In this document: positions 1 to 599 of the stretch, piece by piece
How the letters are laid out: every line of letters begins with the position of its first letter
Position numbering within the stretch: the first letter of the stretch is position 1
Source: Escherichia coli
GTDB lineage: Bacteria > Pseudomonadota > Gammaproteobacteria > Enterobacterales > Enterobacteriaceae
Strand: one strand, 5' to 3'
Assembly: GCF_003334255.1 (NCBI RefSeq)
Contig: NZ_QOWU01000212.1
DNA: 599 nucleotides
Program-made: the position numbers and the translations under genes
The notes under the pieces: model-generated
What the model saw: the letters and a program-made list of their open reading frames with translations, nothing else
Told to the model about the DNA's origin: nothing
Database searches by the model: none

Positions 1-76
1 AGTTATCGTGAGAGTAATTCATCGGCACGTTAAATCATATCAGGCGTAATACCACAACCCTTAAGTTAGCGCTTAT

Positions 77-89
77 GGGGCAAATCCCC
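77..89. repeat. Short hairpin GGGG-CAAAT-CCCC at the start of a pyrimidine-rich (+ strand) tract.
   Basis: GGGG (77-80), loop CAAAT (81-85), CCCC (86-89). The downstream sequence is CT-rich rather than T-rich, so it is not a canonical terminator on the + strand. Confidence 0.2.
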
Positions 90-160
90 CTCTCTCCGCC
101 ACTTTATCAATGACTTATCTCCCGACTTCCCGCCTTGCTTTTCCTAAACAGAACAATCGT

Positions 161-170
161 AGAATATTCT
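161..170. repeat. Perfect 10-bp palindrome AGAATATTCT; possible protein-binding site, or chance.
   Basis: Positions 161-170 equal their own reverse complement. The symmetry does not extend into the flanks. About 0.6 such palindromes are expected by chance in 600 bp. Confidence 0.2.
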
Positions 171-231
171 TGAAGGGTTAGATCGTCACTGTTTTCTGTT
201 CGATACTGTGACATTCAGCACTTGATTCGCT

Positions 232-435
232 ATGGATCTGACAGGAAGGTTTCGAGCGAAAATCTGCAGTTATTCAGTCGTTTTCTTATCGGTCACCATT
301 ATTCTTTTAGACATTGATCCTACAAAGCTGCCGCAAAGTTGGTGGTGGGAACTGAAGTTGCGTAGAGAAGGGGTCAATACCCGGAGGCAAACATGGGCTG
401 GCAAAAGTGTAGCGGTATTAGGCGCAGCTATTTAG
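232..435 (+). CDS. Questionable hypothetical small protein (67 aa); more likely a chance ORF than a gene.
   Basis: ATG at 232 to TAG at 433-435, taken from the ORF track. No Shine-Dalgarno sequence upstream (cagcacttgattcgctATG). Contains rare AGG, AGA, CGA and GGA codons. An ORF of this length is expected by chance in about 600 bp of roughly 45-48% GC DNA. The product has a hydrophobic stretch (SVVFLSVTIILLDI) and a WWW motif; I recognise no family. Confidence 0.12.
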   Translation: MDLTGRFRAKICSYSVVFLSVTIILLDIDPTKLPQSWWWELKLRREGVNTRRQTWAGKSVAVLGAAI

Positions 436-451
436 CCTAGTTATGTTTTAT
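417..451 (+). terminator. Weak candidate intrinsic terminator: a 7-bp stem with an 11-nt loop, then an interrupted T-rich run.
   Basis: attaggc (417-423) pairs with gcctagt (435-441), including one G-U pair; the loop is gcagctattta. It is followed by ttatgttttat (441-451). The stem is short and AT-containing and the U-tract is interrupted, so this is marginal. It overlaps the stop codon of the 232-435 ORF. Confidence 0.18.
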
Positions 452-464
452 GAAAACTTGATAT

Positions 465-494
465 CATATAAGTGTCTTACTTATTGGCTGTAAA
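465..494 (-). promoter_or_regulatory. Candidate sigma70-like promoter on the minus strand within the AT-rich tract; it would drive transcription leftward, antisense to the 3' end of the 232-435 ORF.
   Basis: On the minus strand: -35 TTTACA (complement of 489-494), an 18-bp spacer, then -10 TATATG (complement of 465-470). The -35 is a 5/6 match and the -10 a 4/6 match lacking the conserved final T. No comparably good forward-strand pair was found; TTGATA at 458-463 has no acceptable -10 at 16-18 bp. Confidence 0.15.
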
Positions 495-522
495 TAAGGT
501 TTTCTAAGGAATTGTTTCTTTA

Positions 523-599
523 GGTGATGCTGCCAACTTACTGATTTAGTGTATGATGGTGTTTTTGAGGTGCTCCAGTGGCTTCTGTTTCTATCAGCT
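523..599. other. Flank of a p15A-type (ColE1-family) plasmid replicon. In pACYC184 this stretch sits between the cat-side junction and the bom-like and ori sequences, so RNA II and the leading-strand fork would enter from the right on the minus strand.
   Basis: The stretch ggtgatgctgccaacttactgatttagtgtatgatggtgtttttgaggtgctccagtggcttctgtttctatcagct matches, from memory, the p15A backbone of pACYC184-family vectors, where it continues gtccctcctgttcagctactgacgggg toward the origin. This is recalled, not searched. Window sequence left of about 523 does not match the pACYC184 cat/Tn9 side. Confidence 0.6.

Follow-up and report, generated by a model that had tools for sequence, protein, structure and literature searches.

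We analysed a 599-nt stretch of Escherichia coli DNA (hereafter the window, meaning the whole stretch) in which the heptamer GTTTTCT recurs. The recurrence is very probably a matter of chance, that is, a T-rich word that repeats itself in a non-coding mosaic of AT-rich DNA, with no cooperating set among the copies. The finding is an ordinary one. The first-pass annotation had offered two explanations, a series of sites bound by a plasmid-encoded factor or by one of the host on the one hand and base composition on the other. The compositional alternative is supported by shuffled sequences, by the origins of the segments that carry the copies and by the polymorphism of the third copy. The binding-site proposal is not supported: the DNA is chromosomal, its segments have separate origins and the third copy appears to be absent from about 90% of the records that carry its segment. 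Counting the near-copies, the "set" is spread over three DNA segments that differ in their history, which makes a single functional array unlikely. Directly observed were the chance statistics, the segment map and the polymorphism of the third copy; the lack of a function for any of the copies is our inference. The biological weight of the result is small, and its value is that a lead has been closed.

Copies of the heptamer and their expected number

An exact word search of the whole window found three copies of GTTTTCT, at positions 191–197, 280–286 and 499–505, all on the plus strand, and no copy on the minus strand. The shorter word GTTTCT was found on the plus strand at 514–519 and 587–592. 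The coordinates given in the first-pass annotation for both words were thus correct. Copy 1 lies in a displaced serU 3' flank, 87 nt past the 3' end of the tRNA remnant, and copy 2 lies in the same segment, 89 bp after copy 1. Copy 3 is located in a segment unrelated to the serU flank, upstream of an AraC-family regulator gene, where it belongs to a polymorphic minority allele. The near-copy at 514–519 is in that segment too, right before the junction with IS1, and the one at 587–592 consists of codons 4–5 (GTT TCT, Val-Ser) of the IS1 gene insA. The start-to-start spacings of the three exact copies are irregular, 89 and 219 bp.

Two of the copies had been described as having similar contexts, but the likeness stops at 7 nt. 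By eye, about four of the eight bases immediately 3' of copies 1 and 2 agree, and the context of copy 3 shares nothing with them. When the window was searched for extended repeats with a 6-nt seed, no repeat family reaching past GTTTTCT was found. The search yielded only weak two-copy families of 17–20 nt with 70–76% identity, and the heptamers are in none of them.

The multiplicity had also been said to exceed a naive expectation. This is true of the chosen word alone: 0.18 copies of GTTTTCT are expected per window and three are seen, a number reached in 0 of 200 and in 1 of 5000 dinucleotide shuffles. As GTTTTCT was picked after looking at the sequence, the fair null is the occurrence of any 7-mer at three or more copies, and dinucleotide shuffling of the whole window gave such a word in 21% of cases; the figure was 11% for shuffles of positions 81–523 and 21–39% for sequences generated by an order-2 Markov model. 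Among 375 windows of 599 nt from real E. coli DNA, 120 (32%) held a 7-mer with at least three non-overlapping copies, a value to be taken as an estimate since these windows were drawn from the analysed E. coli loci and overlap, some of the loci being homologous. With one mismatch allowed, there were 5 GTTTTCT sites against 2.8 expected, a number matched in 33 of 200 shuffles. The comparison with a shuffled background, which the first-pass annotation had named as a check, therefore gave equal multiplicity. The multiplicity is unremarkable because the word was chosen post hoc and the any-7-mer null reaches it often: what looks like P < 0.001 for the chosen word becomes a 1-in-3 to 1-in-5 event once that choice is counted, and after this correction no excess of the word over a composition-matched null was seen. 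Some observations do speak against chance. For the chosen word taken by itself, three copies greatly exceed the number expected; they also share one strand, and copies 1 and 2 were invariant in every E. coli copy examined, against a background identity of at least 97%.

Segments of the window and their genomic context

The origin of each part of the window was mapped by BLAST searches of PLSDB and of the complete E. coli genomes, by inspection of annotated neighbourhoods and by local alignments. Judged by these matches, the window is a chromosomal E. coli intergenic mosaic lying between insertion sequences, and plasmid or p15A DNA is excluded. Positions 1–77 are the terminal part of IS421, an IS4-family element with IS186-like ends, whose terminal inverted repeat occupies approximately 55–77; the boundary at 77 is uncertain by 1–3 nt because it abuts a G-run. 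It is followed on the plus strand by the 3' end of a truncated copy of the tRNA-Ser(CGA) gene serU (78–104, by match to K-12 serU) and by a displaced copy of the sequence natively found downstream of serU (105–379), which is about 97–98% identical to the serU–yodB spacer of K-12. Positions 380–437, also on the plus strand, are what is left of the right end of ISEc33, an IS630-family element, including its terminal inverted repeat GCGCAGCTATTTAG. Then come the upstream region of a gene for a YdeO/GadX-like AraC-family regulator (438–522, plus strand) and the left end of IS1 (523–599, plus strand), which begins with the inverted repeat GGTGATGCTGCC and contains the GTG start codon of insA at 578.

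The IS1 end is identical to an annotated element. Window 523–599 corresponds at 100% identity to positions 4190–4266 of a relative (L002), where they are the start of an annotated IS1A; the CDS of that IS1A starts at 4245, equivalent to window position 578, and the translations agree, insA reading VASVSIS. The terminal inverted repeat and the insA start thus follow each other as in the annotated IS1, from which the window differs only in holding no more than the first 77 nt of the element. One near-copy of the heptamer had been placed inside a "p15A flank", a description that has to be replaced by the IS1 left end. pACYC-type p15A vectors carry this IS1 end as a remnant of Tn9, and this probably explains how the p15A label arose.

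The IS421 end was recognised in a similar way. Window 55–79 is the reverse complement of positions 2738–2762 of a further record (L001), a stretch at the opposite end of an annotated element that contains the IS421 transposase gene. Each end of this element in L001 is flanked by a copy of approximately GGGGCAAATCC (2725–2765 and 4070–4095), so that paired terminal inverted repeats and a target duplication are both present. The IS421 end in the window abuts the GGGG-CAAAT-CCCCC of the tRNA T-arm, just as in insertions of IS186/IS421 into G-run/C-run targets. IS186-type elements prefer targets of this kind, and the position of IS421 in the G-run/C-run of the pseudo-tRNA T-arm (window 55–95) fits that preference. 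We also noticed that the IS421 carriers (the window, L001 and L002) have a TT-to-GG variant in the T-loop, by which the G-run is lengthened. Of ISEc33 only a remnant is present; 59 of 63 aligned nucleotides of its right end match, terminal repeat included, and a transposase gene with both ends, as expected of a complete element, was not found in the window.

The map accounts for other oddities of the window as well, such as its longest open reading frame (232–435, plus strand, 67 amino acids). We considered this frame as a small gene and rejected it, since it is chimeric: it starts in the serU flank, runs across the 379/380 junction and continues into the ISEc33 remnant, with its stop codon in the ISEc33 terminal repeat. 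On this evidence the frame is best described as an accidental chimera.

No record among the complete E. coli RefSeq genomes and PLSDB contained the whole window with both insertion sequences, the best matches covering 87% of it. The locus is at the far end of a lambdoid prophage of about 40 kb that is integrated at thrW. In chromosomes it is bordered by the prophage gene pinE together with a GIY-YIG gene and, at the opposite end, by the AraC-family gene and paoD. The same order of prophage tail-fibre gene, pinE, GIY-YIG gene, serU fragment and AraC-family gene as in chromosomes is also found in a 64-kb record annotated as a non-mobilizable "plasmid unnamed3" (L003, NZ_CP146678.1), which may be a prophage in episomal or excised form or else result from an artefact of assembly.

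This context bears directly on the proposal that a plasmid replicon uses the heptamers as binding sites, iteron-like or otherwise. Like plasmid iterons, they are several direct copies of a short word, on one strand, in AT-rich non-coding DNA. Iterons, however, are at least three direct repeats with a unit of about 17–22 bp, regularly spaced in phase with the helix, located beside a replication initiator gene or origin and kept within a replicon family. In the window the shared unit ends at 7 nt, the spacings are 89 and 219 bp, and the surroundings are chromosomal, between the prophage GIY-YIG gene and the AraC-family gene, with no rep gene or origin nearby. The copies are not conserved as a group either, as copy 3 is off the majority allele and the conservation of copies 1 and 2 does not exceed that of the DNA around them. 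What speaks for a replicon is the word count only, the resemblance to p15A stemming from the IS1 end. The genomic context, as read from the sequence matches, refutes this explanation, to which we assign practically no chance of being correct.

Under the preferred explanation, chance recurrence, the spacer was assembled piecemeal: a displaced serU 3' fragment, still attached to some 278 bp of native flank, was joined to a scrap of ISEc33 and to the region upstream of the AraC-family gene, and the whole is interrupted by IS421 on one side and by IS1 on the other. Copies 1 and 2 came in with the serU flank, and copy 3 arose within the AraC-upstream segment through a small local difference in a minority of strains.

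The displaced serU flank

Copies 1 and 2 are both present in the native serU flank of K-12. The same 275 bp are found there directly 3' of serU, in the serU–yodB spacer, which is plain chromosome with no integrated element. At an identity of about 96–99%, the flank (window 105–379) was detected in 5406 of 5426 E. coli genomes. The window keeps only the last 24–27 nt or so of serU (78–104). L003, a relative without the insertion sequences, retains a longer part that matches 66 nt of K-12 serU and extends from the anticodon stem to CCA. In L003 3800–4200, ARAGORN recognised no intact tRNA, and thus no serU cloverleaf.

If copies 1 and 2 alone were functional at the native serU locus and copy 3 were a coincidence, a host DNA-binding protein could bind there, or they could be U-rich signals in the 3' trailer of the tRNA or arm-type sites of elements that integrate at serU. 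The segment does adjoin a fragment of a tRNA attachment site, and both copies are identical in the native K-12 flank and in 12 of 12 compared copies of it. This alignment comprised six displaced and six native flanks, with the IS1-disrupted flank of L002 left out, and it contained 24 variable columns in 299 nt. None of these falls in the 14 heptamer columns, yet only 1.1 would be expected there by chance (P ~ 0.3), and we therefore see no sign in the alignment of a special constraint on the two copies. Two copies of a 7-mer in 275 bp are in themselves unremarkable. The K-12 flank is plain chromosome and therefore not an attP arm. A trailer signal receives no support from the RNA searches: neither T-run is preceded by a terminator-like hairpin, a promoter/terminator scan found no terminator-like site in the window, and no significant fold was detected in four sub-regions around the heptamers (z-scores against shuffles of +2.1, +0.1, −0.4 and −1.3). 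A search of Rfam gave no match for the whole window at E-values up to 1.

Nor is the flank conserved outside Escherichia. We compared 600 bp downstream of the serU 3' end with window 105–379, taking one genome per species and at least 120 loci, and among these no alignable flank was found in Citrobacter, Salmonella arizonae, Enterobacter, Kluyvera or other genera, even in those Enterobacterales whose tRNA 3' end is identical. The only flank match among the listed cross-species loci was in one contig of E. coli-like DNA binned as a Bacteroides MAG. On the whole, a function of copies 1 and 2 at the serU locus is very unlikely.

The contig just mentioned (L018, CAUHML010000302.1, 2.9 kb) comes from a MAG named "uncultured Bacteroides sp." and carries the serU 3' end followed by the E. 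coli-specific flank at 1036–1341 with 97.5% identity. Almost certainly, the contig is E. coli DNA assigned to the wrong bin.

A bolder version of the same idea takes the heptamers at 191 and 280 as putative recognition sites, for instance of a host nucleoid protein or of serU-island recombinases, the displaced serU fragment then serving as a secondary docking site at the junction of the thrW prophage. It keeps some probability because identity across the flank is 96% or more among E. coli strains and no alignment is possible outside the genus, but we regard it as highly improbable. Chance recurrence remains the explanation that we prefer for both copies.

The displaced segment also deserves a description of its own. 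In L003 (3956–4299; window 78–379) a duplication of 344 bp next to the GIY-YIG gene consists of the 3' 66 nt of serU and 278 bp of its native flank. As in displaced tRNA 3' fragments of the attR type, a 3' part of the tRNA gene, here the 66 nt, is duplicated away from the intact gene and lies beside prophage genes. In contrast to such fragments, 278 bp of native serU flank were carried along, the prophage is integrated at thrW and not at serU, and a scrap of ISEc33 follows, which marks the break at 379/380. Compared at the sequence level, the duplication looks like the relic attR of an element formerly integrated at serU that was moved by a rearrangement; it would be a rearrangement relic rather than a working attachment site because of the flank carried along, the location at thrW and the ISEc33 scrap.

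The native serU locus itself is unusual in E. coli strain 127 (L128). RefSeq annotates a 137-nt "tRNA-OTHER" there (261–397) instead of a 90-nt tRNA-Ser, and upstream of the locus a hypothetical gene replaces mtfA. This suggests an element or a rearrangement at serU in that strain.

The segment upstream of the AraC-family gene

The segment with copy 3 has a much narrower distribution and was found in 644 genomes only. The site has two alleles, GGTTTTCT in the window and GTTTTTCCT in most relatives. In a longer context, the allele with copy 3 (AAGGTTTTCTAAGG) is shared by the window, L001, L002 and L005, and the allele without the exact heptamer (AAGTTTTTCCTAAGG) is present in L003, L131 (O157:H7), L132, L133, L134 and L135. 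With a 61-nt query over the site, 64 records matched at an identity of at least 99% and 578 fell between 95 and 99%; among the matches listed, the latter class sits at 96.7%, as expected of the second allele. Counted in this way, about 90% of the carriers of the segment appear to be without copy 3. Conservation of the copies in related sequences, a further check named in the first-pass annotation, therefore fails at copy 3, where the majority allele does not contain the exact heptamer.

The gene downstream of this segment encodes an AraC-family regulator of 247 amino acids (4604–5347 in L003, 2079–2822 in L131), and in relatives without IS1 its start codon is about 160 bp beyond window position 523. 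The protein gave a YdeO/GadX-like NCBIfam match of 148 bits, which is below the cut-off of 348. Copy 3 together with GTTTCT at 514 might be taken as an operator or promoter element of this gene, as in relatives without IS1 the sites lie about 170–185 bp upstream of the start codon and binding to AT-rich DNA has been reported for AraC-type regulators of this subfamily (PMC10877973). The exact heptamer is, however, missing from the great majority of the records with the segment. In the window, moreover, IS1 separates the site from the gene and cuts the gene off from most of its upstream region, and the single promoter-like site detected in the scan is inside IS1 and not at the heptamer. We consider a regulatory role of this kind very unlikely, and copy 3 is better explained, like the other two, by chance.

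The regulator may be PatE (Z0321, encoded in OI-8 of O157:H7), a prophage-encoded activator of acid resistance in O157:H7 (PMC10877973); the cluster names for the protein (WP_000246059.1) say "AraC family" only.

Finally, we observed IS1 at three sites of this AT-rich intergenic region in different strains. Besides the insertion at window position 523, L002 carries IS1 at 4190–4957, with window positions 257–266 duplicated, and L135 carries it at about 600, corresponding to window position ~479/480. Because the three positions differ from strain to strain, the region is, as far as these insertions indicate, a local hotspot of IS1.
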